Positions 1,369-63,716 of a stretch of 64,000 nt of DNA are shown here, piece by piece (position 1 is the stretch's first letter; every line of letters starts with the position of its first letter). This DNA is from a virus. The DNA is taken from positions 1 to 64,000 of IMG/VR virus record IMGVR_UViG_3300043331_000919, one strand, 5' to 3'. The notes under the pieces are model-generated. The model was not told where the DNA came from, made no database searches, and saw only the letters and a program-made list of their open reading frames with translations. Position numbers and translations under genes: made by a program.

Positions 1369-1480
1369 GCTTCCATCATCACCCCAGCGTCCAGACCTTT
1401 GCCCCAGTCTGCGACTGAACGGGCGTTGAGATGGGAACAGGTCGAAGTGAGAGGTGTCCAACCGACCACGGAGGTTCGAG

Positions 1481-1738
1481 ATGACCGGACGCGAGAAGGG
1501 CACCGCCACGATGCCCTGCCCCCACTGCGGCAACGAGCTCGCTGCGATCGCCCAGGCGGACGGCAGCCTCGCTGGCGAGACCTGCAAGAAGTGCTACGGC
1601 GGCGTCGAGAAGGCGAGCCAGCAGGAGGAGGTCCAGGGCCGCGAGGTCGCGACCCCCGAGGCCGAGGGCGCTGTCACCACCGAGGCCGCCACCGAGGAGG
1701 CCCCCACCCGGAAGAAGAAGGAGCGCAGCGATGGCTGA
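1481..1738 (+). CDS. Small zinc-ribbon protein
   Basis: CPHC...CKKC; GGAGG RBS before ATG 1481. Confidence 0.7.
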   Translation: MTGREKGTATMPCPHCGNELAAIAQADGSLAGETCKKCYGGVEKASQQEEVQGREVATPEAEGAVTTEAATEEAPTRKKKERSDG

Positions 1739-1979
1739 CGAGAAGACCGGCGAGAAGAAGACCCAGGCCCCAGCCAAGAAGACCGCGGCCAAGAAGACCG
1801 CGGCCAAGAAGACCACCTCCGGTCGGGCTCTGCTCGCCCGCGGCAAGGGCGGCGGGAAGCACAAGGGCAGCGGGAAGCGCGGCACCGACCCGGTCCTCAC
1901 CCCGGGCCAGCTCTCCGGCCTCGCCGGCGGCCCGACGCAGGACGACCTCAACCCCGCCTTCGGCGGGCCGCAGGACTGA
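1731..1979 (+). CDS. Small basic histone-H1-like protein (AKK repeats)
   Basis: APAKKTAAKKTAAKKTT repeats; overlaps the upstream gene end. Confidence 0.65.
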   Translation: MADEKTGEKKTQAPAKKTAAKKTAAKKTTSGRALLARGKGGGKHKGSGKRGTDPVLTPGQLSGLAGGPTQDDLNPAFGGPQD

Positions 1980-1980
1980 C

Positions 1981-2157
1981 GTGAGCGGCGCCCCCGTCGT
2001 ACTCCGCATCTGGCTGCCCCACCACGAGCCATCGCTCGCGTGCTGGTGCCGACCGCGGAGTCTCGATGGGGGCGCCGTGCTGCACCGGCGGATCCTCGGC
2101 CGGCCGGGCAGTCAGGAGCGCTGCATGGTTCGCCTGATCGACGGCGTCCCGGCGTGA
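1981..2157 (+). CDS. Hypothetical protein
   Basis: GTG start right after the upstream stop; HHEPSLACWCRP. Confidence 0.4.
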   Translation: MSGAPVVLRIWLPHHEPSLACWCRPRSLDGGAVLHRRILGRPGSQERCMVRLIDGVPA

Positions 2158-2333
2158 CCTACGAGGACCAGTGGAAGTGCCGCGTCTGCCGAGTCGGTCA
2201 GGTCGTGCCCAGCCTGGCCCGGGACTGCGAGCGGCGCCACGGGGTCGACCCGAAAGGTCTTGACGACCCGGTGAAGATGGTCGCGCTCTGTAGTGGAGTG
2301 GGCGTCCCCGAGGAGGGGGCGGAGGTCGCTTAG
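2154..2333 (+). CDS. Hypothetical protein (CxxC)
   Basis: GTGA overlap start; WKCRVC...RDCERRH. Confidence 0.45.
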   Translation: MTYEDQWKCRVCRVGQVVPSLARDCERRHGVDPKGLDDPVKMVALCSGVGVPEEGAEVA

Positions 2334-2506: not shown

Positions 2507-2890
2507 ATGCTCGAACGCGATCTTCAGAATCTCATCGTCTCGTTCTGTCAGAGGCAGAAGCTGCTCGTCTACCACACGTTCGATAGTCGGAGATCCGAGC
2601 CGGGCTTCCCGGATCTGGTGATCGTCGGCGGCAACGGCGTGGTGTACCGCGAGCTGAAGAAGCAGGACGGCCGGCTCACCCGCGACCAGCAGCACTGGCT
2701 CGCCGCTCTGGAGGCCGCCGGCGAGAACGCGGGCGTGTGGCGGCCCTCCGACTGGCCCGACAACGTCCGTTCAGACCTGAGTCACCTCACCAGGCTGACC
2801 GTCGAGCGGCCGGCGCCGACCCAGGCAGAAGTCCGCCGCGCGCTGGCGCGTCGCGGTGCCAAGAATGTTCCACCTCCCGGTATGGTCTAG
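2507..2890 (+). CDS. VRR-NUC domain nuclease
   Basis: ERDLQ...GFPDLVIV...YRELK...GRLTRDQQHWL signature. Confidence 0.85.
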   Translation: MLERDLQNLIVSFCQRQKLLVYHTFDSRRSEPGFPDLVIVGGNGVVYRELKKQDGRLTRDQQHWLAALEAAGENAGVWRPSDWPDNVRSDLSHLTRLTVERPAPTQAEVRRALARRGAKNVPPPGMV

Positions 2891-2894: not shown

Positions 2895-2914
2895 GCAGCG
2901 GAAGGGGGCGGCGA

Positions 2915-3559
2915 ATGTCGCAGTCGAGCATCACGACCAGGCCAGCACGGCACAAGGTCGAGTCGATGAATGGTGAGCAGATCGAACTGCTCCACATCAA
3001 CGAGAAGAAGTTCTACGAGGGCGCGAAGCAGCGTTATCTCGACGAATACTCGTTCACGATGGCGAATGACCTTCGCACGCTCGACCGCCTTCTTCTCCTC
3101 GAAGTCCAGATGTACCGCTACCAGTGGTACTTGATGGCCGGCATGGACTACGAGTCGATCGACCTCGAAGCGAAGGAGGAGGTCGAGTACCGCCGGGCCG
3201 TGAAGGAGCTCACCGCCCAGATCAACGAGACCCAGGCGGCTCTCGGGCTCACCAAGGCGCAGCGCGACAAGCAGACGGTCGACTCGGTCGGCGGCTACAT
3301 CAAGCAGCTGCAGGAGGCCGCGCGGCACCACGGCGTGAAGCGCGAGAAGGAGCTCGGCCGGGCGATCGAGCTGGTGAAGGAGCTGTTCTCGCTGTGCGGG
3401 GCGTTCCAGCGCTCGAACGAGGCGGAGCGGCGCAAGCTCGGCTTCGAGTCGGCCGAGGACATCGTCACCTGGGTGCTGGAGTACATGAAGCCGGAGTACG
3501 ACGCGATCGACGAGCACTTCCGGCAGCACCAGCAGCGCTTCTACATCCGGAAGCTCTGA
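2915..3559 (+). CDS. Hypothetical helical protein, possible terminase small subunit
   Basis: 214-aa helical/coiled ORF with good codon usage upstream of terL; function inferred from position. Confidence 0.5.
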   Translation: MSQSSITTRPARHKVESMNGEQIELLHINEKKFYEGAKQRYLDEYSFTMANDLRTLDRLLLLEVQMYRYQWYLMAGMDYESIDLEAKEEVEYRRAVKELTAQINETQAALGLTKAQRDKQTVDSVGGYIKQLQEAARHHGVKREKELGRAIELVKELFSLCGAFQRSNEAERRKLGFESAEDIVTWVLEYMKPEYDAIDEHFRQHQQRFYIRKL

Positions 3560-3900
3560 TGACGGGACACACGGGCCCGCTGGGCATCGAGGCGCCGCCG
3601 GTCCGCCTCGCGGCCGGCGTCAAGCCTTGGCCCGAGAGCTGGGAGTTTCGCCCGGGGATCGACGACTGTGACCACCAGTGGCAGATCGCGGTCGTCACCT
3701 CGGCCGACACCATCGTGAGCGAGGCGGTCGTGCGCTGCGTGGACTGCTTCAGCCCGCGCTGCGGGAGCTCGGTGAATCGGGATCCGTGCATGCTGCGCCG
3801 CCATCACGAGCACAACCACCTGCCGTGGGGCGCGTGGGTGCGCACCCGACTGCCGGAGGCGCTGGACCGCGAGTCGGTGGAGAGGTGGCTGGACGCATGA
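3559..3900 (+). CDS. Cys/His-rich hypothetical protein ending in a WLD tag (DRESVERWLDA)
   Basis: TGATG overlap start; part of ORF 3124..3900. Confidence 0.7.
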   Translation: MTGHTGPLGIEAPPVRLAAGVKPWPESWEFRPGIDDCDHQWQIAVVTSADTIVSEAVVRCVDCFSPRCGSSVNRDPCMLRRHHEHNHLPWGAWVRTRLPEALDRESVERWLDA

Positions 3901-4442
3901 CTGCGACGTGGCAGAAGATCCTGGAGTCCCACCCGGCCGGCCCGAGGTCCGACGACCCTGACTTCTGGGAGGAGTACCTCGCCGAGCACCCCGACGTGCT
4001 CCACCGCCTGCTCGCCGACGTCTACCAGGCCACTTACGGCGCCGAGAAGCCGCCGACGCTGGACGACCTGTGGGCGATCATGGCGACGCCGCGGTTCACC
4101 AGCCAGGACTTCGGGGACGCGGTACTGGAGCTCCTCGGTGACCGCAGCATCCGCTGGCTCGCGCAGCAGGTCGGCATCGCTCACCCGCAGCTGTCGCGCT
4201 ACCTGTCCGGCCAGCGGCCGATCATCAGCGTGCACGACCACCGCGGCTCCATGCGCCGCATCGAGAGCGTTGCCCAGGCGCTCCACGTCCACCCCTCATA
4301 CTTCACCGAGTGGCGACGCCTCTGGATCATGTCGCTGATCGACTCGGCCTTCGCCAGCCAGCCGTCCCTCTCGGTCGGCATCTTCCGTCGCTTCTCGGGC
4401 TTCGAGGAGCGCAACGTCCGTTCAGATCGGAGTGCGTCGTGA
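3897..4442 (+). CDS. XRE-family helix-turn-helix DNA-binding protein
   Basis: SIRWLAQQVGIAHPQLSRYLSGQR HTH; ATGA overlap start. Confidence 0.75.
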   Translation: MTATWQKILESHPAGPRSDDPDFWEEYLAEHPDVLHRLLADVYQATYGAEKPPTLDDLWAIMATPRFTSQDFGDAVLELLGDRSIRWLAQQVGIAHPQLSRYLSGQRPIISVHDHRGSMRRIESVAQALHVHPSYFTEWRRLWIMSLIDSAFASQPSLSVGIFRRFSGFEERNVRSDRSAS

Positions 4443-5307: not shown

Positions 5308-6971
5308 GCGCCATCCCGATGCTCACCGAGGACGAGATGTACCTGGCGGCCATCCTCGACGACGCTTCGGGCGTTGAGCTCGCCGAGTTCTGCTGGATCG
5401 ACGAGGAGCAGGAGGACGCCTGCTTCCGCCTCTGGGACTACCAGTGGGTCTGGTATCGCAACGAGGCCACCTACCAGATCGACTGGTGTGGCCGAGCCGT
5501 CGGCAAGTCCGTCGGCATCCAGATGCGTGCCTTCGCGTTCCCGTTCAACTACCCGGGTGCCGAGATGCTGATCACCGCGCCCGAGCTCAACCACCTGCGG
5601 CCCATCACCGACAAGGTCGAGCACCTGTTCCGCCACACCCGGCTCGGCTCCGCGATGCTGCCGGCCACCCGCGGCGGGGGCATCAACCACCAGCCCCAGT
5701 TCCAGGCGCACTTCATCAACAACTCCCGGATCATCAGTCGCCTCCCGAACCGCGACGGCCGCGGCGTGAAGGGCATGCACCCCCTCGTCATCGAGATGGA
5801 CGAGGGGCAGGACTACCCCGACGCTGGCTGGATCGAGATCATCGAGACGATGAAGGCCGGCTCGGTCGGCGCCCAGTGGCGGGTCCACGGGGTGTCCCGA
5901 GGCATCCGGGACCGCTACTACCGCTACACCATGGGCGAGGACCCGGACATCCCCTTCAAGGTGCACCGCTATATGGCCATGCACCGGCCCAGCTGGGGCC
6001 CGGACGAGCGCAAGGCCAAGATCGCGATCTACGGCGGCACCGAGGACAACGTCGACTACCGCCGCAACATCTACGGCGACCACGGCGACGCCACCAACCC
6101 GGTCTTCGTGCTCAGCCGACTCATGGCCTGCGTCCGGATCAACGAGAGCCCGTGGGCCTCGGAGTACAACGACACCGTCTACCGGCAGATCAAGATCAAC
6201 GACGAGCTGCTGCAGTCGATCGGCAACGTCGAGCACTTCCTCGACCTGCCCGGCAACCACCTGCACGAGCGCTACTCCTCGTACTGGGGCGGCATGGACG
6301 TCGGCTTCACGCGCGACCCCAGCGAGATCCTGATCTTCGGCGTGACCAAGCACCCCAGGGACAAGGACGCCGACCTCCACCGCCTGCTCGCCCGGGTCCA
6401 CATGATGCGGATCTCGGCCGACGACCAGGCCGAGGTGGTGAAGTTCCTGATGAACTTCTACGGCGACCGGCTCCGCGCGTTCGCCATGGACAAGACGGGC
6501 AACGGCCTGCCGCTGTGGCAGGCGCTCGACCCGGAGGCCGTTGGAACGTCCGTTCACCTGCGCCGCACGCCGCAGCACCTGGCCCGGAAGATCCGCGGCT
6601 ACGGCTTCTCGAACAAGGTCGCCGTCGAGTTCGACGACCGGGAACTGAAGGGCAAGGAGCGCCCCGAGGACGCCGTCATCCAGCGCAACGTCGTCGACTT
6701 CGCCACCGACGAGCTCCGCAAGCTGGTCGACCTCAACCGCATCGAGCTGCCGTACGACCGCGAGCTGCTCACCGAGTGGCAGGGCCAGGAGATCCAGTAC
6801 CAGCGCGACGAGGGGTCCGCGGCCGGCCTGAAGTCCCGACGCTACGGCGGCGGCTCCTTCCACACCCTCGACGCGGCCAAGATGTTCATCGCAGCCAAGC
6901 AGCTGGAGGCGATCGAGGCTGCGCTGAACATCACGAGGCAGCGGGGACCGGTTCTCGCCCGATTCGGATAG
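5304..6971 (+). CDS. terL: Terminase large subunit
   Basis: Walker A CGRAVGKS, Walker B IEMDEG, nuclease motifs GMDVG, DKTGNG and HTLDA. Confidence 0.88.
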   Translation: MSAIPMLTEDEMYLAAILDDASGVELAEFCWIDEEQEDACFRLWDYQWVWYRNEATYQIDWCGRAVGKSVGIQMRAFAFPFNYPGAEMLITAPELNHLRPITDKVEHLFRHTRLGSAMLPATRGGGINHQPQFQAHFINNSRIISRLPNRDGRGVKGMHPLVIEMDEGQDYPDAGWIEIIETMKAGSVGAQWRVHGVSRGIRDRYYRYTMGEDPDIPFKVHRYMAMHRPSWGPDERKAKIAIYGGTEDNVDYRRNIYGDHGDATNPVFVLSRLMACVRINESPWASEYNDTVYRQIKINDELLQSIGNVEHFLDLPGNHLHERYSSYWGGMDVGFTRDPSEILIFGVTKHPRDKDADLHRLLARVHMMRISADDQAEVVKFLMNFYGDRLRAFAMDKTGNGLPLWQALDPEAVGTSVHLRRTPQHLARKIRGYGFSNKVAVEFDDRELKGKERPEDAVIQRNVVDFATDELRKLVDLNRIELPYDRELLTEWQGQEIQYQRDEGSAAGLKSRRYGGGSFHTLDAAKMFIAAKQLEAIEAALNITRQRGPVLARFG

Positions 6972-9100: not shown

Positions 9101-9910
9101 ATGAGCAAGCTCGACCTGCTGGGCGACCTTCGGGAGCGCTACGGCACCAAGGCGGTAACGCCCGTTGTCACCCCGGCCGATGACCAGGTGAGCGTCGAGA
9201 AGGCGTTCGTCGTGCACGCCGACTCGGGGCGCACCGTGATCACCGCGCCGCTGCGCGAGATCGCGATGACCAACCCCGGCTTCATGTACCTGCGCGGCCG
9301 GTTCGTCGGCGCCGACACCCCCAACGGCAACGGCGCGCTGTGGTCCAGCGATGACCTGCGGCTCGGGGAGAACACCGTCGCCGGCGGCCCGCTGAACTGG
9401 CTCCACGACGAGACCCACATCATCGGCTGCCTCACCGACGGCCAGCTGGTCGGCGCGGAGAAGGCCGCCGAGGGCGTCAACGCCCACCTGTCGGCCACGG
9501 CCGCGGTGTGGCGCTTCCTGTTCCCCCGGGAGGCGCAGACCATCGAGAAGGCCGCCAACGACGGCGAGCTCTACTACTCGATGGAGTGCATCAGCCGCGA
9601 GGTCGCCTGCGTCGACACTCCGGGTCGGCCGGGCTGCGGGGAGACCTTCTCCTACGGCGACTACGACGCCGGGAAGTGCTGCACCCACCTGCGCGAGCGC
9701 TCCGCGGTGCGGCAGTTCGTCGACCCGATCTTCCTCGGTGGCGCGGTCGTCGTTCCGCCGATCCGGCCCGGGTGGCACCAGGCCAATGCTGAGGTGCTGC
9801 GCCAGGCCGCGTCGCTCGCCGAGGAGAACGGCCTGGCCGCCGGCAACCGCACGCAGGAGCAGGCCATGGGACTGGCGACCGCCGTGCTCGCCTGGGCCAA
9901 CCGCGACTGA
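9101..9910 (+). CDS. Capsid maturation protease / head morphogenesis protein
   Basis: Between portal and scaffold; NGNG...PLNWLH...IIG...SME pattern resembles prohead proteases. Confidence 0.55.
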   Translation: MSKLDLLGDLRERYGTKAVTPVVTPADDQVSVEKAFVVHADSGRTVITAPLREIAMTNPGFMYLRGRFVGADTPNGNGALWSSDDLRLGENTVAGGPLNWLHDETHIIGCLTDGQLVGAEKAAEGVNAHLSATAAVWRFLFPREAQTIEKAANDGELYYSMECISREVACVDTPGRPGCGETFSYGDYDAGKCCTHLRERSAVRQFVDPIFLGGAVVVPPIRPGWHQANAEVLRQAASLAEENGLAAGNRTQEQAMGLATAVLAWANRD

Positions 9911-10114
9911 CCCGACGCCTTAACCCGCCAAGCTGCCTGGCGAACCGCCGCCACGGGAACGCGCGTTCTGATCCGACCCCAAGGCGGGTCAAGACGTACC
10001 CAGCTGTTTCCTCAACGCCCGTTCTGTTGCGGGTCTCCCCCTCGCTGCCGAAGTGACCCACTGAACGCAGGTCGAGCCCGCCTCGACCCCAGATGAGCAG
10101 TGAGGAGGAGAGGC

Positions 10115-36010: not shown

Positions 36011-36050
36011 CAGCGTCAGCCATGCCTACTCACAGAAACGGGAACGTGCG

Positions 36051-50888: not shown

Positions 50889-51027
50889 CGAGGAACTCCT
50901 CCGCTCCATCGCGGGTCGACAGGTCAGGACGCTCGGCCACCCGTTCGGACTCCTGGATCCGGCGGGTCGCCGGGCAGTCGCGGGGCTCATGGTCTCCGTC
51001 GCAAAGTCCGCAGTATGCGTCAGTCAT
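50881..51027 (-). CDS. 48-aa micro-protein with tag variant (DLSTRDGAEEFLDD)
   Basis: Hand-translated: MTDAYCGLCDGDHEPRDCPATRRIQESERVAERPDLSTRDGAEEFLDD*; fills the gap with overlaps on both sides. Confidence 0.6.
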   Translation of the reverse strand: MTDAYCGLCDGDHEPRDCPATRRIQESERVAERPDLSTRDGAEEFLDD

Positions 51028-52968: not shown

Positions 52969-53285
52969 GCCTCCACCTCCTCGCGGTCTGTGCTCTCCGG
53001 AGCGTCGTACTTCCTGGTGGGCAGGGCCACCCCGGCGTAGCTCTGGATGCAAGCCCAGAGTCGCTCGCCGGCGTCCTTGCACTTGCGGCGCTCCATCGAC
53101 TGGCCGCGCGCCGTGGTGGCCGCGGCGACCGCGTAGAAGACCGCGTTGCGTGCATCTTCGAGCGGGACGCTCTCGCCCTCCGCGAGGCGGAGCAGCACGT
53201 TGCGCCACTCGTCGAGCACCTTCCGCAGCGTGCTCAACTCCCGCGCGTCAGCCCGCCGGGGCTCGGCGAGGTGAATGAACAGCAT
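52953..53285 (-). CDS. Hypothetical protein with C-terminal WLD tag (STDREEVEAWLDS)
   Basis: GAGGAG RBS after the vWA stop. Confidence 0.65.
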   Translation of the reverse strand: MLFIHLAEPRRADARELSTLRKVLDEWRNVLLRLAEGESVPLEDARNAVFYAVAAATTARGQSMERRKCKDAGERLWACIQSYAGVALPTRKYDAPESTDREEVEAWLDS

Positions 53286-53293
53286 GGCTCTCC

Positions 53294-54847
53294 TCAGATC
53301 GTCCGGAACAGTTCCTGCACGCCCTCGGGGGAGGCGTTCAGGCTGTTGATGTTCATGCAGCGGTCGGCGAGATCCTTCAGGTTGTTGCGGAACGGCTCGC
53401 CACCGATCTGCAGCCCGTAGCAGCGGATGCCGGCGGACTCGCGCAGCTCGCGCCACTCCTCGATGAACTCGGGGCTGACCCGGCAGTCGTCGTCGGTGAT
53501 GAAGACGACGTCGGGCAGGTCGCGCCCGCCGCGCTGGTAGTCGCGCACGATGTTCGCGGCCATGGCGATGGGCCGCTCGTACTGCGTGCCGCCGGAGAAG
53601 AAGTGCTCGGTGAACTCGATGACCTTCTCGATCGCCATGACGCCGCCGGGGAAGTCGATGCGCCACTGCTGGCTCGGGCTGGAGAAGCCGATGTAGGTGA
53701 AGTCCCGGCCGCCCCGGCGCGCCTGGTCGCACAGCGCCAGCGCCACGGCCTTCGACCACGCCTCGCGGGTGTTGCCCTCGTCGTCGACGCGAGCGCCCAT
53801 CGAGCCGGACTCGTCGCAGACCACGATGATCGGGCCCTTGCCGGCGCGCTCCGGGCCCACGGTCTCCCACTGCATGAGCTGGTGCCGGTGGTAGCGCAGC
53901 CAGAACTGGTCCTCCAGCTCAGGGATCGCCAGCGCGTTGATCTCGTTGGCGACCAGCTTCGCGATGTCGCGGCCAGTGGTGACGTCGCGGCGCTCGGCCG
54001 GCGCGCCGGTGACCTTGCGACGACGCTCGGCGTCCGCGAACTGGCGGAACGCGCCCACGAGGTCGGCGAGCTGCTTGATCTTGCCCCGGTCCAGGCGCTC
54101 CGCGAGGCGCCGGCGCTCCTCGAACGACATGCGCTGCAGCGTGCCGTCCTCCACGCCGTAGCCCTGCATGGCCTCCTGCTCGGCCTCGATCTTGTCCGCG
54201 GCGTCCTTCAGGCCCTTCTTCACCTGCTCCTTGGCCTGCTCGGCGTTCGCCTCGGCGTCGCCCTCGGCCTGCGCCATGGCGGCCATCGCCTGCGCGAGCG
54301 ACTCCGCGGCCTCCTCCTGGCCCTCGCCACTCTGCTGGGCCGCCTGCGCCGCTGCCAGCGCCTCCTGCAGCGCCTGCTGTGCTTGCGCGACGGCCTCGTT
54401 GATCTCGTCGGCGGCCTGCATCATGTCGTCCATGCGGTCGCGCATCGTGATCATGGCCAGCGCGGTGTTGTACTCGTCGAGCTTGGTGTGTGACCGGATG
54501 TAGGAGAACTCCTCGTCCTCGAACATCTGCCCGAGCATCGCGTGCTGCGCGACGTACTCCGGCTTCATCCGCGCCTGCTCGGTGAACCGCGGGTCTGCCT
54601 GGTTGAGCAGGTTGAACAGATCCTGGTAGCCGGCGCGCGCGGTGTCACGCTCCTCGGCGGCCTCGTTGACCTGCTCAGCGAGCGCGGGCACCTGGTCCAG
54701 CGTGGTGAGGTAGGCGAACCGGTCGAACCGGTCGAACTTCACCGCGTGCGTCTCGGTCGGTGTGACCGGCTTCGACGCGGCGACGGGGTCGTCCCAGAAG
54801 TCGTCGCCCTGCGCCTTCGCGATCATCTTGTCGAGGTACTCGCTCAT
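53294..54847 (-). CDS. vWA domain protein (ViaA-like)
   Basis: GPIIVVCDESGSM MIDAS, GGTQY, DVVFITD. Confidence 0.85.
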   Translation of the reverse strand: MSEYLDKMIAKAQGDDFWDDPVAASKPVTPTETHAVKFDRFDRFAYLTTLDQVPALAEQVNEAAEERDTARAGYQDLFNLLNQADPRFTEQARMKPEYVAQHAMLGQMFEDEEFSYIRSHTKLDEYNTALAMITMRDRMDDMMQAADEINEAVAQAQQALQEALAAAQAAQQSGEGQEEAAESLAQAMAAMAQAEGDAEANAEQAKEQVKKGLKDAADKIEAEQEAMQGYGVEDGTLQRMSFEERRRLAERLDRGKIKQLADLVGAFRQFADAERRRKVTGAPAERRDVTTGRDIAKLVANEINALAIPELEDQFWLRYHRHQLMQWETVGPERAGKGPIIVVCDESGSMGARVDDEGNTREAWSKAVALALCDQARRGGRDFTYIGFSSPSQQWRIDFPGGVMAIEKVIEFTEHFFSGGTQYERPIAMAANIVRDYQRGGRDLPDVVFITDDDCRVSPEFIEEWRELRESAGIRCYGLQIGGEPFRNNLKDLADRCMNINSLNASPEGVQELFRTI

Positions 54848-55173
54848 GTGAGCCCTTCCTGCTGCTTGAACTGACGGAGAGCCTTGCGTAGGCCCTCCTC
54901 GTTGTACTCGCTGTCGATCGGGCCGAACTCAGCGCCAAGCGCGAACCGCCACGCGGTGGCTGCGTCGGGCCCGCGGCCCCAGTTGCCGCTGAACTCGACT
55001 TGGTAGACGTCGTCGCTGACCCAGCCCTCGGTGACGCCGTCACCGACGTCCACCAGCCACTTGCCGGCGTCGAGGTCGCCGAGAAAGTAGGCGTCCCCCT
55101 TGCGCTCCTCCAGCAGCGGCTCCGTGTCGTCGAGCCACTCCTCGACCGCGTCGCGATCGCTCGGATCAGGCAT
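54844..55173 (-). CDS. Acidic protein with N-terminal WLD tag (DPSDRDAVEEWLDD)
   Basis: Coding part of ORF 54844..55314. Confidence 0.65.
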   Translation of the reverse strand: MPDPSDRDAVEEWLDDTEPLLEERKGDAYFLGDLDAGKWLVDVGDGVTEGWVSDDVYQVEFSGNWGRGPDAATAWRFALGAEFGPIDSEYNEEGLRKALRQFKQQEGLT

Positions 55174-55453
55174 CAGCATCGAGGAACTCCTCCGCCTTCG
55201 CGCGGGTGGACAGGTCGAACGCCGACACCCTGATGAGGCACGGGTCGATCCAGAAGTGCTGGCCGGTGCCGAGCACCTCGACGTGGACGTCGTGCCACTC
55301 TTCGACGTGACCACGCACGATGCCGACCGTGCCGGCGTCGACGTACTGCTCGGTCTCCGAGCCGGGCTCGCGCCACACCTCGCCGGCCCTCGTGGAAACG
55401 AGCGTTCCCTCGTCCGGGAACACCGGCGTGTCGACGCAGGCCCAGCCGCTCAT
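55166..55453 (-). CDS. SH3-like protein with tag variant (DLSTRAKAEEFLDA)
   Basis: ATGA overlap start. Confidence 0.6.
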   Translation of the reverse strand: MSGWACVDTPVFPDEGTLVSTRAGEVWREPGSETEQYVDAGTVGIVRGHVEEWHDVHVEVLGTGQHFWIDPCLIRVSAFDLSTRAKAEEFLDADA

Positions 55454-55710
55454 CCCGCCCGCTCCTCGTCCCACCTGACCTGATCGCCGAGCACGTCGCG
55501 GGTCAACGACAGCGCCTCGCCGCGGATCGCGCCCTTCAGCGCCTTCAGGGCCTCCATCACGAGCGGGCTGGCGGTCTCCACGACCACCACCGCGGAGCCG
55601 TGCTCCACGCTGGAGCCGAGGCAGACCTGCGCCTGCACGCCGCGCTTCAGCTCGCGGATCCCGCGCACCTCGCCCTTCAGCATCGAGGTGCCGTTGCTGA
55701 CGGTGCTCAT
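55450..55710 (-). CDS. Hypothetical protein
   Basis: ATGA overlap with the AAA gene stop. Confidence 0.55.
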   Translation of the reverse strand: MSTVSNGTSMLKGEVRGIRELKRGVQAQVCLGSSVEHGSAVVVVETASPLVMEALKALKGAIRGEALSLTRDVLGDQVRWDEERAG

Positions 55711-56936
55711 CGCTGGCCCCCGTCGCCCATGCCCAGGCGCTTCTGGAGCATGATCTCGGCCTCGGCCTCCGGCTGCTCCAGGCAGACCATGAAGGCGCGC
55801 TTCAGGGTCCGGCGGTGCAGGTCGGAGACCTCCTTGAACTGCGGGATGCGGCGGCCGTCGGCCTCCATCAGCATCGTGTCGAGGCGGTTGCGGGCGTCGG
55901 CGAGCTTGCGGTTCGCCTCCTTGCCGTACGCCTGTCGCGCGTCGGTCTGGTCGTTGCCGCTCGCGTCCGGCCCGGTGCGCTCGGTGATGCCGTCGTCGAC
56001 CTGCTTGATCGCGTCGCGGATCTCCAGCAGCGGCTCGACGAACGGGTTGGCGGCCGACAGGCACAGCCGCGAGACCTTGTCGATCTGCTCGACGGTGTCC
56101 CACAGCGTGAAGCGGAGCACGACCAGGTCGTCCTCCAGCACCTCGTCGCGACCGTCGAGGAAGGCGTGCGCCTGCAGCGCGCGCATCGAGGCGCGCCAGC
56201 GACGGTCGGAGGGGTAGAGGTGCTCGCGGGTGAACGCGGCCTTCAGGCTGGCGAGCGCCTGGAGTGCGCGCTCGTCGATCTTCACGGCCGGCACGACGTC
56301 GTCGATGACGTCCTTCAGCTCCATCCACTCGATCTCGGTCTCGGGCGCCTTCATGTCGCCCACGAGCAGCTGGCGGAAGTTGTCGGTGTCCTGCAGGTAG
56401 TCCACGACCACCCGGAACAGGAGTCGGTCCCACAGGGCCGCGGCGTCGTCGGACTCCGCGGTCACCATCTCGTTGGACGCGGTGAACGCCGTCGACAGCG
56501 GCGCCGGGTGGCTGGAACGCCCGTTCTCGACCTCGTGGTAGAGCCGCTCGTTGAGCAGCGCCAGCAGGTCGTGGCCGAGGATGCTCGACATCTTGCCGAT
56601 CTCGTCCAGGAAGGCGAACTCCACCTGCGAGGCGAAGTGCTCGCGCTTCAGCACGTAGTCACCGGTCTCGCGGAACCGCTTCACGTCCAGCGGGCCCATG
56701 ACCGCCTCGGTGGGGCGGGTCTTGGAGAGCAGGGTCTCGAAGTAGCGCGCGCCCATGAAGGTGCGCACCATGGCGCGGACCAGGTCCGACTTCGCGGTGC
56801 CCGGAGGGCCCAGCAGGAAGACGTGCTGGCCGCTCAGGACCGCTAGGAGCATCGCGAGGATGGCGTCCGAGCGCTCCAGGTAGGTCGCGTTCAGCTCGTC
56901 CCGCAGGGCGTTGAGCTTGGTGGCGATGGGGTGCAT
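55707..56936 (-). CDS. MoxR-family AAA+ ATPase (RavA-like)
   Basis: HVFLLGPPGTAKS, AFLDEIGK, ASNE, ALWDRLLFR, SDRRW. Confidence 0.88.
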   Translation of the reverse strand: MHPIATKLNALRDELNATYLERSDAILAMLLAVLSGQHVFLLGPPGTAKSDLVRAMVRTFMGARYFETLLSKTRPTEAVMGPLDVKRFRETGDYVLKREHFASQVEFAFLDEIGKMSSILGHDLLALLNERLYHEVENGRSSHPAPLSTAFTASNEMVTAESDDAAALWDRLLFRVVVDYLQDTDNFRQLLVGDMKAPETEIEWMELKDVIDDVVPAVKIDERALQALASLKAAFTREHLYPSDRRWRASMRALQAHAFLDGRDEVLEDDLVVLRFTLWDTVEQIDKVSRLCLSAANPFVEPLLEIRDAIKQVDDGITERTGPDASGNDQTDARQAYGKEANRKLADARNRLDTMLMEADGRRIPQFKEVSDLHRRTLKRAFMVCLEQPEAEAEIMLQKRLGMGDGGQR

Positions 56937-56945: not shown

Positions 56946-57848
56946 TCAGCAGCGCGGCAGGGCCGCGAGTTGGGTGGTGGTGCAGTCGGCGGGTGCAACG
57001 TCCGTTCGCAACCCGCGGAAGACCGGGAACCGCAGGGTGCCCCCGGACGTGATGTTGATGGTCTCGATCTCGCCGACGAGGAGCTCGCCAGCGTCGAGAC
57101 GGGACTTCAGGTCGTGCGTCTGGCGCTCGGTGAACCCAGAGCCACAACGACCGACTGGGACCACGGTCCCGCGCTCGTCCACCAGGGCGAGCAGCAGGGC
57201 GCCGAAGTGCTCGCGCGAGCCGCTGCCGGGCGTGTAGCCGGCGAGCAGGCACGAGACGCGGTGCAGGTGCTTGAACTTCACCCAGTCGCGCGAGCGACGG
57301 CCGAAGCGGTAGCGGGAGACGAGTCGCTTCGCGATCACGCCCTCCATGCCCATGGCGCGGGTCTGCGTCCACAGGCTCATGTCGTACGACACCGGCGCGA
57401 TCAGCACGCCGTCGTCGGCGAGGCGCTCCAGGCGCTCGCGACGCTCGCTCCACGGCTGCTTCGCGAGCGCCGGCAGGTCGAAGGCCACGAATCGACAGGG
57501 GTGCTCGTCAGCGGCCCGGCGGATCTTCGCGGTGATCGACTGCGACTCGCGCATGAGCGTGGTCTCGAACGATCCGTTGACGGCCACGATCTCGCCGTCG
57601 AGCCAGCCGTGTCGGCTGCCCCCGGATTGGTCCGTCATGGCGGCGACGACCTCCGGGAAGATCCGGGCCACGTCGACGCCCTTGCGGTTCAGGATCCGGC
57701 CGTCCGGCATCAGCATGGCCCGCACGCCGTCGAGCTTCGTGTCCAGCACCCAGTCGCCGGTCGCCATGAGTTGGTCCACCTGGACCGGGTCGCGACCGGA
57801 GGCGCCGGTACTGGCGCTCGCGAGCATGGGGAGGAACTCGGCCTGCAT
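56946..57848 (-). CDS. ATP-dependent DNA ligase (LigD/LigC-type ligase domain)
   Basis: KLDGVR, LDGEIV, FVAFD, EGVIAKR, WVKFK, CGSGF, LRFPVF. Confidence 0.92.
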   Translation of the reverse strand: MQAEFLPMLASASTGASGRDPVQVDQLMATGDWVLDTKLDGVRAMLMPDGRILNRKGVDVARIFPEVVAAMTDQSGGSRHGWLDGEIVAVNGSFETTLMRESQSITAKIRRAADEHPCRFVAFDLPALAKQPWSERRERLERLADDGVLIAPVSYDMSLWTQTRAMGMEGVIAKRLVSRYRFGRRSRDWVKFKHLHRVSCLLAGYTPGSGSREHFGALLLALVDERGTVVPVGRCGSGFTERQTHDLKSRLDAGELLVGEIETINITSGGTLRFPVFRGLRTDVAPADCTTTQLAALPRC

Positions 57849-58213
57849 CAGTTCTCCCAGATCCGCCACTCGGCGGACTCGACCTCGCCCGCGAACATCA
57901 GGCGCTCCTGAATCTCGGGGTCACTGGGGCCACCCTCGCCGAGCGAGTCCTCGGCGTCGCCGGCGTGCGACACGTCGCCCTCGTCCCAACGGACGTTGGG
58001 GAAGACCTCGCGCATCTCGGCCTCGGTCAGCGTGATGCTGCGTACGACCTTCTCGGTCTTGCAGATCGTGAACGTCCGCGGGGCGCGGACCTCCTCAGCC
58101 TCCCAGTGCCAACCGTTGCCGATCTTGTCGCAGGCTCGGTCGATGGCCTCCTCCTCGGTCTCGGCCTCCACGTTCATCGTGTAGTGGCCGGACACCTGAA
58201 ACTGCTTGCTCAT
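57848..58213 (-). CDS. Hypothetical acidic protein
   Basis: VEAETEEEAI motif; coupled overlaps. Confidence 0.6.
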   Translation of the reverse strand: MSKQFQVSGHYTMNVEAETEEEAIDRACDKIGNGWHWEAEEVRAPRTFTICKTEKVVRSITLTEAEMREVFPNVRWDEGDVSHAGDAEDSLGEGGPSDPEIQERLMFAGEVESAEWRIWEN

Positions 58214-59443: not shown

Positions 59444-59678
59444 AGACAGCGTTGAGGTTCGAGGGGCGCTCGGTGAGGCGCGCGGTCTCGTCCTGAGTGA
59501 TGCTGCCGTGGAGCTTCTCGCCGTGCTGGCGGGCGTGGTGGGCGCACCAGAGAAGGTCGCCGGCCTCGTGCTGCGTGCGCACGTACGCCTGCGCGCCGCA
59601 CCGGTCGCACCGGTCCAGCGCCGTCAGGGGCGCCGTGCTCTCCACGTCCGGTACTTCGACCGCAACGGGCGTTGTCAT
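59442..59678 (-). CDS. Small conserved actinobacterial Zn-binding protein
   Basis: LTALDRCDRCGAQAYV...LLWCAHH. Confidence 0.7.
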   Translation of the reverse strand: MTTPVAVEVPDVESTAPLTALDRCDRCGAQAYVRTQHEAGDLLWCAHHARQHGEKLHGSITQDETARLTERPSNLNAV

Positions 59679-60184
59679 CCGTTCTCCTTCGTCTCGTCGG
59701 ACTCCATGTCGTCCAGCCACTTCCCGATCGCGGCCAGATCGCCCGGGTTGGGCATGGGGTCGAGCGCGGCTGCGTGGGGCGTGAGCCACTCGATCGCCTC
59801 GCGGGGGTCGAACTCGTAGTAGGGCCCGGTCTCCGGGCTGGGAGCCGTGACGAAGCCCCACTGGGAGACCTGCGAGGAGTCGAGGCTGGAGGCGAAGTCC
59901 CACAGCGAGTTCTCGTCGAGACCCGCCTCCTCGGCGTCCAGCGACTCGCCGAACACGAACAGGCATGCGAAGGTCATGCTGGAGAAGTCCTGATCGCTCT
60001 GGTCGAGCGCGATCTTGATCTGGCTCTCGGGGCGCAGCGAGAGCACGTAGTGGCTCAGCGCCAGGAGCACGGCGATCTCAGAGAGCTCGCGCACCTTGCG
60101 GTAGATCTCCCACAGGCCGCCCGGTCCGCCGAGCGCCTTGCTCAGTCGCTCCTGCGCGACCTCGTGCTGCTCCGGCGTCATCAC
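59675..60184 (-). CDS. Hypothetical protein with WLD-like tag (GDLAAIGKWLDD)
   Basis: ORF track; coupled overlaps. Confidence 0.6.
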   Translation of the reverse strand: MMTPEQHEVAQERLSKALGGPGGLWEIYRKVRELSEIAVLLALSHYVLSLRPESQIKIALDQSDQDFSSMTFACLFVFGESLDAEEAGLDENSLWDFASSLDSSQVSQWGFVTAPSPETGPYYEFDPREAIEWLTPHAAALDPMPNPGDLAAIGKWLDDMESDETKENG

Positions 60185-60546
60185 GGCTGCCCCGAGATCT
60201 CAGGGCGGTAGTGGCGGAAGCCGCGGTCGACCAGCTCCTCCATGCTGCGCGGGTGGCCCTCGTCGTCTTCCACGGCGCGCAGCGCGTCGAGTAGGTGGTG
60301 CAGGTCGCCCATGAGGTCGCCGATCGCGAGGAACACCGACTCTCCACTGGCAACGCCCGTTGTGACGGCGTAGTGGTGGACGGCCTTCGCGGCGAAGTGG
60401 GCCCGCCGTTCGTTCTCCTCTCGCGGCGCGATCCCGTGCAGCGGGATACCGGTGTCGGGCAGCGCGTCGAGCGCGTCGGTGGCGCTGAAGACTGCCTTGT
60501 CGACGGGGCGGGCGCGGTAGTCGCTGCCACCCTCGGGTGTGCTCAT
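60181..60546 (-). CDS. Hypothetical protein
   Basis: NERRAHFA...IGDLMGDLHH pattern. Confidence 0.6.
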   Translation of the reverse strand: MSTPEGGSDYRARPVDKAVFSATDALDALPDTGIPLHGIAPREENERRAHFAAKAVHHYAVTTGVASGESVFLAIGDLMGDLHHLLDALRAVEDDEGHPRSMEELVDRGFRHYRPEISGQP

Positions 60547-60704
60547 CGCAGGTTCTCCTCTCGTGGTTCGTGCTCGGCGACGAATGTGTCGTGGGCGTCG
60601 CAGGTCTCGCGCCACAGGCGGTCGTCCCCCGTCGCCTCGGGGTCCACCCAGCGGCCGTCCTCGTCCAGGCAGATCGACCGGCCACAGTGCTTGCAGATCC
60701 TCAC
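60543..60704 (-). CDS. Small Cys/His protein
   Basis: CKHCGRSI...CDAH...HEP. Confidence 0.55.
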   Translation of the reverse strand: MRICKHCGRSICLDEDGRWVDPEATGDDRLWRETCDAHDTFVAEHEPREENLR

Positions 60705-61663
60705 AGCTTCCCCCCTCCGATCAGCGTGACGGCCGCGTGAGCCGCGGCCAGGCGGTGTCCGAGCCACTCGGCCATGCCGACGTGCATGGCGTTGCCGAGC
60801 ATCTGGTAGCGCGCGGAGTCCGGGGCGCCGGTGCCAGCGGTCCAGTCGTCCGGGAAGCCTTGGAGCCGCTCCCACTCGGTCAGGGTCAGCGTTCGCAGGT
60901 GTCCGCCCTGCGAGATCAGGTGGGTCTGCCGGGCCGGACCGCCGCCATCGAAGCCGGTCAGCGTGTTCGCCATGCCGTCGGCGACCCAGGTCTCGTAGCC
61001 ACCCTTGCTCACGGCTGCTCGGGCTCGGGCGGACTTTCGCCAGACAGCATCGAACGCAGCGCCTCCAGCAGGTGCGGGTCCGCACGGTGCCCGCCGGACT
61101 CGATCCGCGGCAGCAGTTTCTCCGCCGAGCTCGGGGTCACCCAGAACCGACCATGCGAGTCGGGGGTCGCCTCCACGATGTCCGACCACGAGGACTCGCT
61201 CGCGTCGCTGGGGCGTGCCGAGGTGTCGCCCGTCCACCACTCGATACGCCCACCCATACCCGAGGTCCCCCAGGACACCGAAGATGGTGGCTGCGTCCCG
61301 CCCCCCGTTGCTCCGGAGGAGTCCGGTGGGGTTCTCGATGACCACCCAGCGGGGCTTGGTGTCGTCGAGGATCCGGGCGAACTCGAAGAAGTGCCCGGAT
61401 CGTCTTCCCGCGAGGCCGGAGCGATGCGGGGCGGCGATGGAGGTGTCCTGGCAGGGGAAGCCTCCTGCGGCGACGTCAGCGCGCGGTAGATCCGATCCGG
61501 CAACGTCACTGATATCTCCCATCAGTTGGGTGTGTGAGAAGTGGCGGCGCAGCACGCGCTGGCAGTGGGCGTCCCACTCGACCTGGCATGCGGTCTCGAT
61601 GCCGGCGCGACTGAAGCCGAGCTCGAATCCGCCGATGCCGGCGAAGAAGGAGTTGGCGATCAC
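60701..61663 (-). CDS. dcm: DNA (cytosine-5)-methyltransferase
   Basis: FAGIGG, GFPCQD, ENP, PQRRERV, EWERLQGFP, LGNAM. Confidence 0.92.
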   Translation of the reverse strand: MIANSFFAGIGGFELGFSRAGIETACQVEWDAHCQRVLRRHFSHTQLMGDISDVAGSDLPRADVAAGGFPCQDTSIAAPHRSGLAGRRSGHFFEFARILDDTKPRWVVIENPTGLLRSNGGRDAATIFGVLGDLGYGWAYRVVDGRHLGTPQRRERVLVVGHRGGDPRLAWSVLGDPELGGETAAADRVRRAPCGPAPAGGAAFDAVWRKSARARAAVSKGGYETWVADGMANTLTGFDGGGPARQTHLISQGGHLRTLTLTEWERLQGFPDDWTAGTGAPDSARYQMLGNAMHVGMAEWLGHRLAAAHAAVTLIGGGKL

Positions 61664-62133
61664 AGGCCCACGTCCTCGCGGTCGGCGGTGATGGTGCGGT
61701 GGGAGCCGTCCTCGCGGGCTGCGTGCCAGTCCTCGTCGCGCTCGACCTCGGTTGCGAAGACCATCTCGCCCTGCGGGTAGAACCCGGCGACCAGGTCGCC
61801 GTTCGCGAGCCGGAACCAGCGCCATTCCGAGCGTGTGTCGTCGCTGTCGGGCAGCGACGTGAGCAACTGCGTGACGGTCGCGTGGTCACGGATCGGGAAG
61901 GATTCTGCGATGAAGAAGGTCTCGCTGCCGCTGGCATCGACGGCCTCGATCATGGCCTCGTGACGCAGCGCCTCGTAGTACCCAAGCACGACGGAGTCGG
62001 CCGGGTTGAGAGCGCCCACGCCAGCGAGGGAGCGCAACGCCTGCGCGACTCCGTGTGGTGTGATCGGCGCGCTGGCGTCGGCCAGGTGTTTGCGCACCGC
62101 GTCGAGCACGACCGTGTCTGGGGAGAAAGTCAC
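61660..62133 (-). CDS. Hypothetical protein
   Basis: GTGA overlaps; WRWFRLANGDLVAGFYPQGE. Confidence 0.55.
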   Translation of the reverse strand: MTFSPDTVVLDAVRKHLADASAPITPHGVAQALRSLAGVGALNPADSVVLGYYEALRHEAMIEAVDASGSETFFIAESFPIRDHATVTQLLTSLPDSDDTRSEWRWFRLANGDLVAGFYPQGEMVFATEVERDEDWHAAREDGSHRTITADREDVGL

Positions 62134-62348
62134 AGGGCCTCCTGGGCGTAGCGCAGCACCGGGCCGCGGCGCCGCCGGAGCGTGACCACGATCCCCGCCG
62201 CTGCACGGGGGTCCACCTTGACGTCGATCAGGGCGAGGTAGGCACCGTACTGCTCGAACACGGTTCGCACAGCTGCGAAGTCGCGCTTCGCGAGTGCCTG
62301 CGTGCGTTTGGACTCGAACGCCCTGTCGGCCTTGGTCTTGTGACTCAT
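62130..62348 (-). CDS. Hypothetical basic protein
   Basis: ATGA overlap. Confidence 0.5.
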   Translation of the reverse strand: MSHKTKADRAFESKRTQALAKRDFAAVRTVFEQYGAYLALIDVKVDPRAAAGIVVTLRRRRGPVLRYAQEAL

Positions 62349-62797
62349 CGCCACATCCTTTCGCCGCCCGCGGCGACCCGGTCGAACGCCTTGTAGTCCC
62401 GGGTCGCGTGGTCGGTGTAGTGGTAGTGCGAGCCGAGCGCAGTGCGCACCGACCCCTGGTGCTGGCCCGTGGTGGGCGAGTAGCGGACCGCCGGCATGAC
62501 CCAGCGACCCAGCGGCCCCGCGGTCTCCAGCCACTCGTCAACTGCGTGCGGGTCGTCGAGTGACGGCAGGATCGCGAGTGTCGGGTCGAACCACGCGATC
62601 GGCGTGGCGTAGGACCAGACCGCGTAGGTCGCGGCCATGAGCGAGTCGTGCCAGCGCTGCGGCAGGCAGCCCGTGGTGAGGCCGAGCCAGGAGTGCTCGT
62701 CGAGCCGCTGCCCGGAGAAGGACTCGCGGTAGTTCGTGAACGAGCGTTGCTCGCGGATCATCGCGATCGCGTCGTCGTTCACGCGGATCTTCTTCAC
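62345..62797 (-). CDS. Hypothetical protein with inserted WLD tag (LDDPHAVDEWLET)
   Basis: YAVWSYATPIAW...[tag]...W.MP..RYSPTTGQHQ. Confidence 0.65.
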   Translation of the reverse strand: MKKIRVNDDAIAMIREQRSFTNYRESFSGQRLDEHSWLGLTTGCLPQRWHDSLMAATYAVWSYATPIAWFDPTLAILPSLDDPHAVDEWLETAGPLGRWVMPAVRYSPTTGQHQGSVRTALGSHYHYTDHATRDYKAFDRVAAGGERMWR

Positions 62798-63339
62798 GGC
62801 GTCTCCAGCCATGCGTCCACCACCTTCGTGTCGTGCAGCGGCACCAGCTGCCGCGCGGGGTAGATCCGGTCGACCAGGGCGAACGGCGAGCCGGTGTCCT
62901 TGGGGTCGCGCGCCGGGTCGCTGATGTGGTTCGGCCACCACGAGGCGTACTCGCGCGCGAAGTTCTTCACGCTCGGGTCCTTGGCGCGCCAGCCTCGCGT
63001 GGCGACCATGACTCGGGTCTGCTCCAGGAAGTTCGCACGGCCGGCGTACTGGCCGATGATCGCGTCGGGGTCGTAGCGGAACATCACCGCGATCCACCAG
63101 CCCCACTCCATCCAGGTGGCGGCGGCGCCGAAGGATTCGGCGCCGTAGCGGCCGGTGTTGCGCCGGCGCCTGCGGTGCGGCGCCTCCTGCCCCTCCAGCG
63201 CGGTGTCGAACTTCCGGGCGCGGCTCCGTGAGCCGGACTCGTCGCAGCGGTCTAGGTAGACGCCGGCGTCGACCAGACCCGCATCCTTCAGGGCTAGGTG
63301 CAGGTCGCGGTAGGTCATGCGGTCGGTGTGGATCAGCAC
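62794..63339 (-). CDS. Hypothetical protein with C-terminal WLD tag (LHDTKVVDAWLETP)
   Basis: GSRSRARKF...AATWMEWGWW...DPDA. Confidence 0.65.
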   Translation of the reverse strand: MLIHTDRMTYRDLHLALKDAGLVDAGVYLDRCDESGSRSRARKFDTALEGQEAPHRRRRRNTGRYGAESFGAAATWMEWGWWIAVMFRYDPDAIIGQYAGRANFLEQTRVMVATRGWRAKDPSVKNFAREYASWWPNHISDPARDPKDTGSPFALVDRIYPARQLVPLHDTKVVDAWLETP

Positions 63340-63716
63340 GACTCGTCCTCCTCCTCGATCTCGCAGAGTGCGATCGCGATCTCGTCCTCGTTCATGTACG
63401 CCCACTCCTGCACGCGCGCCACGAACGGACTGTCGTCGTCGGGCTTCATCTCGGCGCGGTAGGACTCTGCGGCAGCCGAGAGGAAGGCGAGCAGCGTCAC
63501 GACCATGTCGCCGGGGCTGAGGTTTCGCCGGGCCGGCGCGTACAGGTCCGCGGCGGAGTCAGCGAGACCTTCGCCGTCGATCCACACCTCCCAGGCGTAG
63601 GTCATGTGTCCCCCGTTGGACCAGTCGCCGGTGCGGCGGACCTTCAGGACAGCGTCGCCAACGCGCGTTGACGCGAGGTCGTCGTCGAACAGGTCGACGG
63701 TCACCCGGTCAGTCAT
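63333..63716 (-). CDS. Hypothetical protein
   Basis: ORF track; TLLAFLSAAAES. Confidence 0.6.
   Translation of the reverse strand: MTDRVTVDLFDDDLASTRVGDAVLKVRRTGDWSNGGHMTYAWEVWIDGEGLADSAADLYAPARRNLSPGDMVVTLLAFLSAAAESYRAEMKPDDDSPFVARVQEWAYMNEDEIAIALCEIEEEDESC

Follow-up and report, generated by a model that had tools for sequence, protein, structure and literature searches.

The first 64,000 nucleotides (nt) of the IMG/VR virus record IMGVR_UViG_3300043331_000919 (the window, part of a 79,506-bp contig of 69% GC and an estimated completeness of 81%) belong to a phage, referred to as G000, in which the palindrome AACGNNCGTT (AACG-NN-CGTT) recurs in both arms of the genome. The gene map, obtained from codon statistics, comprises 132 genes over 87% of the contig, with a rightward arm (1.5-42.3 kb) of packaging, head, tail, and replication genes and a leftward arm (42.3-71.5 kb) of, for the most part, small genes. 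Genes annotated in the window encode a sigma-70-family factor, VRR-NUC, an XRE-type helix-turn-helix (HTH) protein, TerL, a PD-(D/E)XK nuclease, two PAPS-reductase-like proteins, AAA_24, a primase-helicase, WhiB, a RuvB-like AAA+ protein, DUF6744, VWA, MoxR, an ATP-dependent DNA ligase, Ku, and a C5 cytosine methyltransferase, and genes for DUF4192 and a MerR-type HTH protein lie just past its end. The presence of WhiB points to an actinobacterial host. The closest cultured phages are very distant when TerL and the major capsid protein are used as queries, namely GX15bay (38-42% identity) and then Bacillus Basilisk-like phages, and no relative was seen as a prophage when TerL was queried against 185,579 species genomes. 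No tyrosine or serine integrase (PF00589, PF00239) was matched in the contig, an absence that is not final at 81% completeness, and ParB_N (PF02195) had no match at E <= 1 in the same incomplete contig, with no fold-level search of all proteins made. The phage appears to be lytic.

The window holds 42 exact copies of AACGNNCGTT and the whole contig 49 (Table 1). An earlier, sequence-only reading of the window had listed 40 positions, all of which are exact, and had missed two further copies at 9157 and 39926. The expected count in the window was 0.42 +/- 0.64 (maximum 2) in 100 dinucleotide shuffles, and the expectation was 0.83 from half-site frequencies, corresponding to an enrichment of about 60-fold, and 1.45 +/- 1.03 (maximum 6; about 34-fold) in 300 codon-preserving shuffles, in which the amino-acid sequence and codon set of each gene were held constant. 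The codon-preserving comparison, which had been proposed in the sequence-only reading, gave counts far from similar to the 49 present. Chance and codon usage as the source of the sites are ruled out by the dinucleotide and codon-preserving shuffles. Enrichment is confined to a gap of two bases: AACG-Nk-CGTT with k = 0, 1, or 3-12 occurs in just 0-3 copies each, and no other gapped palindrome in the contig is near AACGNNCGTT in enrichment. All 49 sites have the exact AACG/CGTT core with 11 different spacers, and the spacer bias reported previously (GG/CC 17 and GA/TC 10 of 40) persists in a recount of the window (GG/CC 18, GA/TC 10).

The word is kept through selection on the DNA itself. As noted in the sequence-only reading, copies lie mostly inside genes and force codons that are rare in this genome: 32 of the 49 sites are in coding sequences (CDSs) on the present gene map, distributed over frames 0, 1, and 2 as 9, 5, and 18 and encoding unrelated peptides, and the forced codons are GTT, CGT, GAA, and CAA. 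Although GTT makes up 3.8% of Val codons, every one of the 18 frame-2 sites ends in it. The other 17 sites lie in the 13% of the contig without a gene call (binomial p = 8e-5).

Searches with TerL and with the XRE-type protein, together with a scan for pairs of sites, yielded nine distinct related genomes from many samples (GC 63-69%; TerL identity 61-80%, most other proteins 30-85%), including G001, G002, G003, G005, G006, G016, and L171, with G003 and G004 representing the same phage (99.9% identical). In every relative, AACGNNCGTT is the top over-represented palindrome, with 5-43 copies at one per 1.4-3.4 kb (for G000 and its close relatives together, roughly one per 1.6-2.4 kb), whereas the motif-free outgroups, i.e., G010 (136 kb, 95% complete), L011-L013, and GX15bay, with TerL identity of 43-47% or less, have 0-1 copies. 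Where codons are aligned, a site in one genome usually stands opposite 3-6 mismatches in the other, and the few shared intragenic sites differ in their spacers. The places kept across relatives are chiefly intergenic, upstream of genes 1481, 10115, 17168, and 30481; 32 of 88 sites in the relatives fall in about 9% of the DNA, and intergenic enrichment thus ranges from 2.7- to 4-fold (p 8e-5 and 2e-12) over G000 and its relatives. The network persists throughout the clade although single intragenic sites are quickly gained and lost, and the conservation among relatives that the sequence-only reading had called for holds for the network and its operon-head places and fails for most of the intragenic copies. 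A preferred position 47-68 nt past the start codon, observed for 9 of the 32 CDS sites in G000, was not reproduced in five relatives (4 of 56). The outgroup G010 has a palindrome of its own, TTCAG-N3/4-CTGAA (L159-L160; G010:894-28500), numbering about 18 copies at intervals of 0.6-2 kb; that this is a homologous network in which the word has altered was rejected, as these copies are confined to one 28-kb arm and their layout differs.

Base preferences with two-fold symmetry in the flanks of the sites are weak in G000 (Y at -4, G at -3, and S at -1) and strong in G016, in which the word is TGC(C/G)-AACGNNCGTT-(G/C)GCA and 31 of 48 one-mismatch cores retain the flank signature. Recognition is therefore spread over about 18-22 bp in the manner of a transcription factor rather than of a Type II-like enzyme, and the symmetric preferences fit the dimeric binder previously suggested from the dyad symmetry. 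Base-pairing covariation in the flanks does not exceed the base-frequency expectation in G000, G016, and five further relatives; the element is thus read as sequence and not as a hairpin or cruciform, and an RNA terminator or processing element is ruled out by the same result. Since the G000 flanks carry almost no information, the idea that the sites are pieces of some longer repeat or of a mobile cassette was rejected. The distinction from the LexA box drawn in the sequence-only reading also stands, since position -1 is C in 46% and G in 43% of sites, positions -3/-2 are not TC, and no site has TCGAAC/GTTCGA flanks, so that neither TCGAAC-N4-GTTCGA nor CGAAC-N4-GTTCG fits.

A second short element, G[CT]CGAAGT, occurs in 25 copies in the contig, 11 of which are intergenic and aimed at the next gene, 7-88 nt off for most; its form in the relatives is YCGAAGW and in G016 CCGATAT. 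Its probable role is that of a -10 element in promoters recognised by the sigma factor that the phage encodes, and it presumably resembles the sigma-28/WhiG -10 element GCCGATAA. The factor itself, comprising regions 2, 3, and 4, is putatively group-3-like. Five palindromes lie 4-31 nt upstream of G[CT]CGAAGT, and a conserved subset of sites at operon heads overlaps the -35 region of putative late promoters or lies a short way upstream of it; the promoter-region sites highlighted in the sequence-only reading accordingly belong to a part of the network that is conserved across relatives.

The reading we favor, at about even chances, is that the 49 copies are docking sites of a dimeric sequence-specific DNA-binding protein. 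One homodimeric protein, most likely phage-encoded and specific to this phage clade, would dock at high affinity on all 49 copies, and each monomer would read AACG and a few flanking bases, giving a footprint of about 18-22 bp. Once docked, the protein would modulate transcription of the sigma-dependent operons of the phage, although this transcriptional role is rather doubtful; intragenic copies would act as additional road-blocks, as a reservoir, or as points of cooperative contact along the genome, and the lattice would be active when the phage grows lytically and would not serve to silence a prophage. Such a word is appropriate for an HTH dimer, since Thermus PaaR, a TetR-type dimer, binds CNAACGNNCGTTNG at about 1 nM (PMC9493321, PMC6651687). 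This Thermus thermophilus operator has the identical 8-base core and 2-base spacer and is likewise bound by an HTH dimer, but it differs in that two operators in a bacterial genome serve one catabolic regulon. TetR_N was found in none of roughly 90 phage proteins scanned, a set that covered the small genes in part.

The best candidate for the binder, and a tentative one, is the XRE/Cro-C1-type HTH protein encoded at 3897-4442. It has 77 metagenomic homologues and matches Pfam HTH_31 (E 1.9e-4), its AlphaFold2 (AF2) model has a predicted local distance difference test score (pLDDT) of 78 overall and 93-98 over the HTH, and Foldseek matches at prob 1.0 include P22 c2, DdrO, ClgR, C.AhdI (a restriction-modification controller protein), and SinR. 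Proteins of these types bind DNA dyads as dimers. Orthologues are present in all motif-bearing relatives, and in each of them the gene lies between a TerS-like gene and terL; the TerS-like gene of G000 (2915-3559) is strongly conserved, with 155 metagenomic homologues, and is structurally nearest, weakly, to the HK97 small terminase. About 40 genes are common to G000 and G016. The sigma factor, 1481-1738, 41710-42090, 50046-50306, VWA, and MoxR occur in the motif-bearing clade but were found neither in G010 nor in GX15bay, and 38218-38640, 39344-39670, and 41710-42090 encode small proteins that the clade conserves. The case for the other binder named in the sequence-only reading, an HTH at 42326-42661, is weakened: it matches HNH-endonuclease PHROGs at E 1e-9 against E 0.0099 for an HTH, looks like part of an HNH endonuclease, and is not common to G016.

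Several points weigh against the docking of a dimeric regulator. Distant homologues of the XRE-type protein occur in the motif-free outgroups, so that this protein, for all its real HTH fold and its presence in every motif-bearing relative, is still only the candidate binder that it was in the sequence-only reading, and the position of its gene between TerS and TerL may imply a packaging role. The strongest tie of any protein to the word is phylogenetic co-occurrence. The 24 one-mismatch variants total 10 copies in G000 versus about 20-24 expected; such sites are thus not enriched, a sharper cutoff than transcription factors usually show. Only 5 of the 49 sites adjoin G[CT]CGAAGT, most being without a visible link to transcription initiation, and the site-to-element distance varies from 4 to 38 nt, which argues against a -35 element or a fixed-geometry activator site; the palindrome as a -35 element for the phage sigma factor was rejected on these grounds.

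The sites might instead act through their density, the lattice loading or anchoring a protein that organises, condenses, self-marks, or packages the DNA (ParB/KorB, Noc, or pac-like), with the regular 1-2 kb spacing rather than position being what matters. This explanation is unlikely, although spacing in G000 is more even than random (coefficient of variation (CV) 0.66 vs. 0.97, p about 0.001), with a mean of 1.6 kb, a largest gap of 4.2 kb vs. 7.1 kb expected (p 0.007), and closest pairs 54-91 bp apart without a tandem array. Such a function would also be in keeping with the intragenic location of two thirds of the sites and their turnover among relatives at constant density, and with the conserved XRE-type gene between the TerS-like and TerL genes. 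However, the even spacing is not seen in G016 (CV 0.90, largest gap 9.2 kb), ParB_N was not found in the contig, and the operon-head intergenic sites are kept in position, which a pure density role does not predict.

It is improbable that the copies serve, in scattered form, for the loading or recognition of a replication initiator or primosome component. The primase-helicase gene is flanked by site pairs (36043; 38113/38167), the mean spacing matches Okazaki-fragment size, and S-AACGNNCGTT arrays with an 11-bp period lie inside DUF1376 N-domain genes in four of four unrelated phages tested; these arrays, however, were found by a search selecting this very word and may be coincidence, and G000 has neither a tandem array nor DUF1376, for which Pfam six-frame and purpose-built hidden Markov model searches found none. 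Primase recognition words are, moreover, typically 3-5 nt. The overlap of the 36043 site with the primase-helicase start codon, claimed in the sequence-only reading, holds if translation starts at TTG 36051 and not if it starts at ATG 35964, which would place the site 80 nt inside the gene. The arrays themselves are head-to-tail, every 11 bp, in 4-9 copies, in unrelated IMG/VR phages of 45-69% GC (L029:2642-2740, L036:2455-2557, L116:1249-1515, L094:6044-6408); inside the genes with N-terminal DUF1376 they translate to NGRSTDVQR-like repeats, in a layout like that of the lambda origin in gene O, and about 25 further loci from the array scan appear to show such clusters. DUF1376 or lambda O-type origin iterons thus have the S-AACGNNCGTT unit in common with G000, but form a tandem array at one locus inside the initiator gene, whereas the G000 sites are dispersed singles.

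There is likewise a slim chance that a host protein, e.g., a TetR/PaaR-like or other global regulator, binds the sites and that the clade exploits or titrates it, which would count further against a phage-encoded dimer. A bacterial TetR regulator binds exactly this core, no phage binder is proven, and the limits of the motif-bearing clade could be those of a host group. The flank preferences nevertheless differ between G000 and G016, which is more easily explained by a co-evolving protein in each phage, and phages carrying the network come from many samples and span 63-69% GC.

Recognition of the word by an enzyme, namely the C5 methyltransferase (60701-61825), a restriction-like nuclease, or the HNH-like 42326-42661, with the sites as modification, nicking, or cutting marks, is very improbable. 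The G000 core is indeed all-or-none (49 exact vs. 10 one-off copies), and the phage has genes for a full-length methyltransferase, an HNH-like protein, Ku, and an ATP-dependent ligase. However, the methyltransferase and the HNH-like gene are both missing from the set that G000 has in common with G016, which carries the network; in G016 the flanks contribute and core mismatches are tolerated, unlike Type II recognition, and no solved enzyme was matched by the methyltransferase in its target domain. Restriction recognition sites are, furthermore, normally avoided and not enriched 60-fold. A link to either the C5 methyltransferase or the PAPS-reductase-like genes was rejected, as neither is common to G016.

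A prophage-silencing stoperator network of the Cluster A mycobacteriophage type, the known analogue named in the sequence-only reading, can hardly be upheld despite a similar density (about one site per 1.6 kb) within and between genes on both arms, because the sites are symmetric and not oriented, no prophage relative was seen among the species genomes, and the integrase and ParB expected with silencing by an immunity repressor were not found in the contig. Cluster A stoperators are asymmetric and transcription-oriented, lie mostly in short intergenic gaps, and are bound by the monomeric immunity repressor of temperate phages with an integrase or parABS, the bound repressor blocking elongating RNA polymerase. 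Those of L5 (gp71) and Bxb1 (gp69) resemble the present network as dozens of near-invariant sites, about one per 1.5-2 kb on both arms, for one phage HTH protein (cited in PMC4351075). By contrast, the G000 sites are dyads, two thirds are intragenic, and lysogeny genes were not found.

The closest described system is found in Cluster O mycobacteriophages, whose 17-bp dyad repeat is represented in Corndog by TGTTCGGNNNCCGAACA in 34 invariant and three one-off copies, at intergenic, 5'-proximal, and internal positions in the proportion 14/10/10 (Cresawn et al. 2015, PMC4351075). Integrase and partition genes are lacking in Cluster O phages, which do encode Ku, and the authors inferred a dimeric binder with a role other than transcription initiation, leaving the function open (PMC4351075). 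Both systems have invariant inverted half-sites with a variable spacer, more than 30 copies in an actinophage genome of 70-80 kb, few one-off copies, mixed positions (17 of 49 intergenic in G000), no integrase or partition gene found, and a phage Ku. The G000 word is a different one with 8 specified bases vs. 14, and the lineage is unrelated, TerL and capsid queries finding no Cluster O phage but only GX15bay and distant Bacillus phages; the network has here also been traced over diverged relatives, with turnover, operon-head sites, and drifting flank specificity. Dispersed invariant palindromes have thus been known in cultured Cluster O phages since 2015 without an assigned function, and what is new is the same design in an unrelated, widespread soil-phage clade, together with comparative facts that constrain its mechanism: selection on DNA sequence, drifting binder specificity, intragenic turnover against fixed operon heads, and no lysogeny genes seen. 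If the binder were identified, it would open a route into a form of control or organisation that spans the genome.

As a more speculative and quite unlikely extension of the docking of a dimeric protein, the lattice, the sigma-28-like factor, and the zinc-ribbon protein (1481-1738) may have arrived together as a self-addressing transcription system, in which a dimer every 1-2 kb would mark phage DNA and concentrate or gate the sigma-holoenzyme. None of the three was found in the nearest motif-free relatives. If this were true, Cluster O repeats would be instances of a common and so far undescribed way in which lytic phages control their whole genome.

Table 1. Palindrome sites and associated features of G000 (positions in the window; L015 copies in the numbering of that locus).
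Feature	Position	Strand	Context and conservation
Sigma-70-family factor	269-985	-	regions 2, 3, 4; in motif-bearing clade, not found in outgroups
Zinc-ribbon protein, 85 aa, CPxC...CxxC	1481-1738	+	first gene behind 1418 site; clade-specific
XRE/Cro-C1-type HTH protein, 181 aa	3897-4442	+	candidate binder; between TerS-like gene and terL
G[CT]CGAAGT	10047-10054	+	example copy
G[CT]CGAAGT, further intergenic	1441, 7006, 12279, 14620, 17111, 28936		
G[CT]CGAAGT, further intergenic	59653		leftward
G[CT]CGAAGT in L015	12928, 16405, 16818		
Site	1418-1427		AACGGGCGTT, intergenic, divergent promoter region of sigma-factor operon (-) and gene 1481 (+); GTCGAAGT 14 nt downstream; place kept in G003/4 and G016
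Site	2762-2771		VRR-NUC gene 2507-2890, frame 0; relatives carry nearby site upstream of TerS-like gene
Site	4413-4422		20 nt ahead of stop of XRE-type gene; orthologous in G002 with other spacer; G016 site 66 nt ahead of orthologue's stop
Site	6545-6554		terL, frame 2 (G-T-S-V); orthologous in G003/4 with other spacer; missing in G001, G002, G005
Site	9157-9166		+56 in gene 9101-9910; relatives have one within about 100 nt
Site	9958-9967		intergenic; first of pair, 56 bp apart
Site	10014-10023		intergenic, upstream of scaffold/capsid operon (gene 10115); GCCGAAGT 24 nt downstream; site in all relatives covering place, G016 included
Site	13489-13498		3' end of gene 13003-13500; same place in G003/4
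Site	17071-17080		intergenic, upstream of gene 17168 (508-aa tail-region protein); GTCGAAGT 31 nt downstream; place kept in G001, G004, G005
Site	19233-19242		CDS 18713-19621, frame 1
Site	23408-23417		tape-measure gene 19838-24661
Site	25395-25404		stretch 25094-25569 without confident gene call
Site	29136-29145		CDS 29020-29439
Site	30299-30308		intergenic, head of replication/recombination module; G002 site at equivalent place
Site	32014-32023		+53 of PAPS-reductase-like gene 31961-33004
Site	33060-33069		+56 of second PAPS-reductase-like gene 33004-33867
Site	34994-35003		AAA_24 gene 33975-35483
Site	36043-36052		start of primase-helicase gene; start codon uncertain
Site	38113-38122		intergenic, first of pair 54 bp apart, downstream of primase-helicase
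Site	38167-38176		intergenic, 51 nt upstream of gene 38218
Site	39133-39142		CDS 38959-39333
Site	39926-39935		+9 of gene 39917-40210
Site	41345-41354		weakly called CDS 41283-41537
Site	42179-42188		first of pair 65 bp apart, where two arms converge
Site	42244-42253		second of pair with 42179
Site	43764-43773		CDS 43572-43829 (-)
Site	44216-44225		CDS 43829-44461 (-)
Site	44764-44773		CDS 44458-45021 (-)
Site	45480-45489		DUF4262 gene 45269-45712 (-)
Site	46907-46916		stretch without confident gene call
Site	47946-47955		RuvB-like AAA+ gene 47433-48452 (-)
Site	49800-49809		CDS 49366-49980 (-)
Site	51276-51285		DUF6744 gene 51020-52006 (-)
Site	51929-51938		same DUF6744 gene, second site, +68
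Site	55397-55406		CDS 55166-55453 (-), +47
Site	56516-56525		MoxR AAA+ gene 55707-56936 (-)
Site	56997-57006		ATP-dependent DNA ligase gene 56946-57848 (-)
Site	57988-57997		CDS 57848-58213 (-)
Site	59664-59673		intergenic; 4 nt from leftward TCGAAGT (3 nt from 8-mer GTCGAAGT)
Site	60352-60361		CDS 60181-60546 (-)
Site	62739-62748		CDS 62345-62797 (-), +49
Site	63660-63669		CDS 63333-63716 (-), +47

In a separate, unrelated phage group (51-57% GC; L140-L152, records G011-G014; e.g., L024:1077-14629), the full palindrome AACGGCCGTT is scattered through the DNA with a density reaching one per kb (36 in 40 kb, 22 in 21.6 kb, 32 in 100 kb, and 14 in 31 kb), often as GGAAACGGCCGTTTCC beside a Shine-Dalgarno sequence. 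These phages have no protein in common with the phage of the window and no DUF1376, and blastn against cultured phages gave no match; a shared binder was rejected, as profile searches found no common DNA-binding protein. The GC spacer that makes AACGGCCGTT is used by none of the 49 sites in G000 vs. about 5.8 expected, although it is often used in relatives (4 of 9 in G001 and 5 of 43 in G016) and GGCC is not avoided in the G000 contig (889 copies); one idea is that the C5 methyltransferase may modify a word that this spacer creates. The methyltransferase (60701-61825, minus strand) is full-length with 374 amino acids (Pfam E 9e-52), and its codon usage is atypical, the codon-based gene caller having retained just the last 103 codons. 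Its nearest genomic relatives, at 52-54% identity, are in unrelated metagenome-assembled genomes, the only matches when it was used as a query in a host search. The XhoI word CTCGAG has 0 copies in the 79.5 kb at 69% GC, and CTCG-N-CGAG has 42 copies vs. 12.5 expected.

Furthermore, a motif D-x-S/D-x-R-x-x-x-E-x-[WF]-L-D is present at the N- or C-termini of at least 10 unrelated small proteins (window 3559-3900, 31961-33867, and 52953-55453; L015 11794-12925). It is followed by the palindrome only in the two PAPS-reductase-like genes, to which a cassette of peptide tag plus site is accordingly restricted. Past the window, L015:8400-10700 (contig 68.4-70.7 kb) is a 2.3-kb stretch of 72-79% GC with no convincing open reading frame, rich in short degenerate repeats (GGACCGGGGCGACCG and similar) and containing three 40-nt repeats, ACAmCTAGCAACGTGACC...TAGGGACCACGG, 83-106 bp apart. 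The stretch adjoins a divergent early-promoter region and may be an origin or control region.

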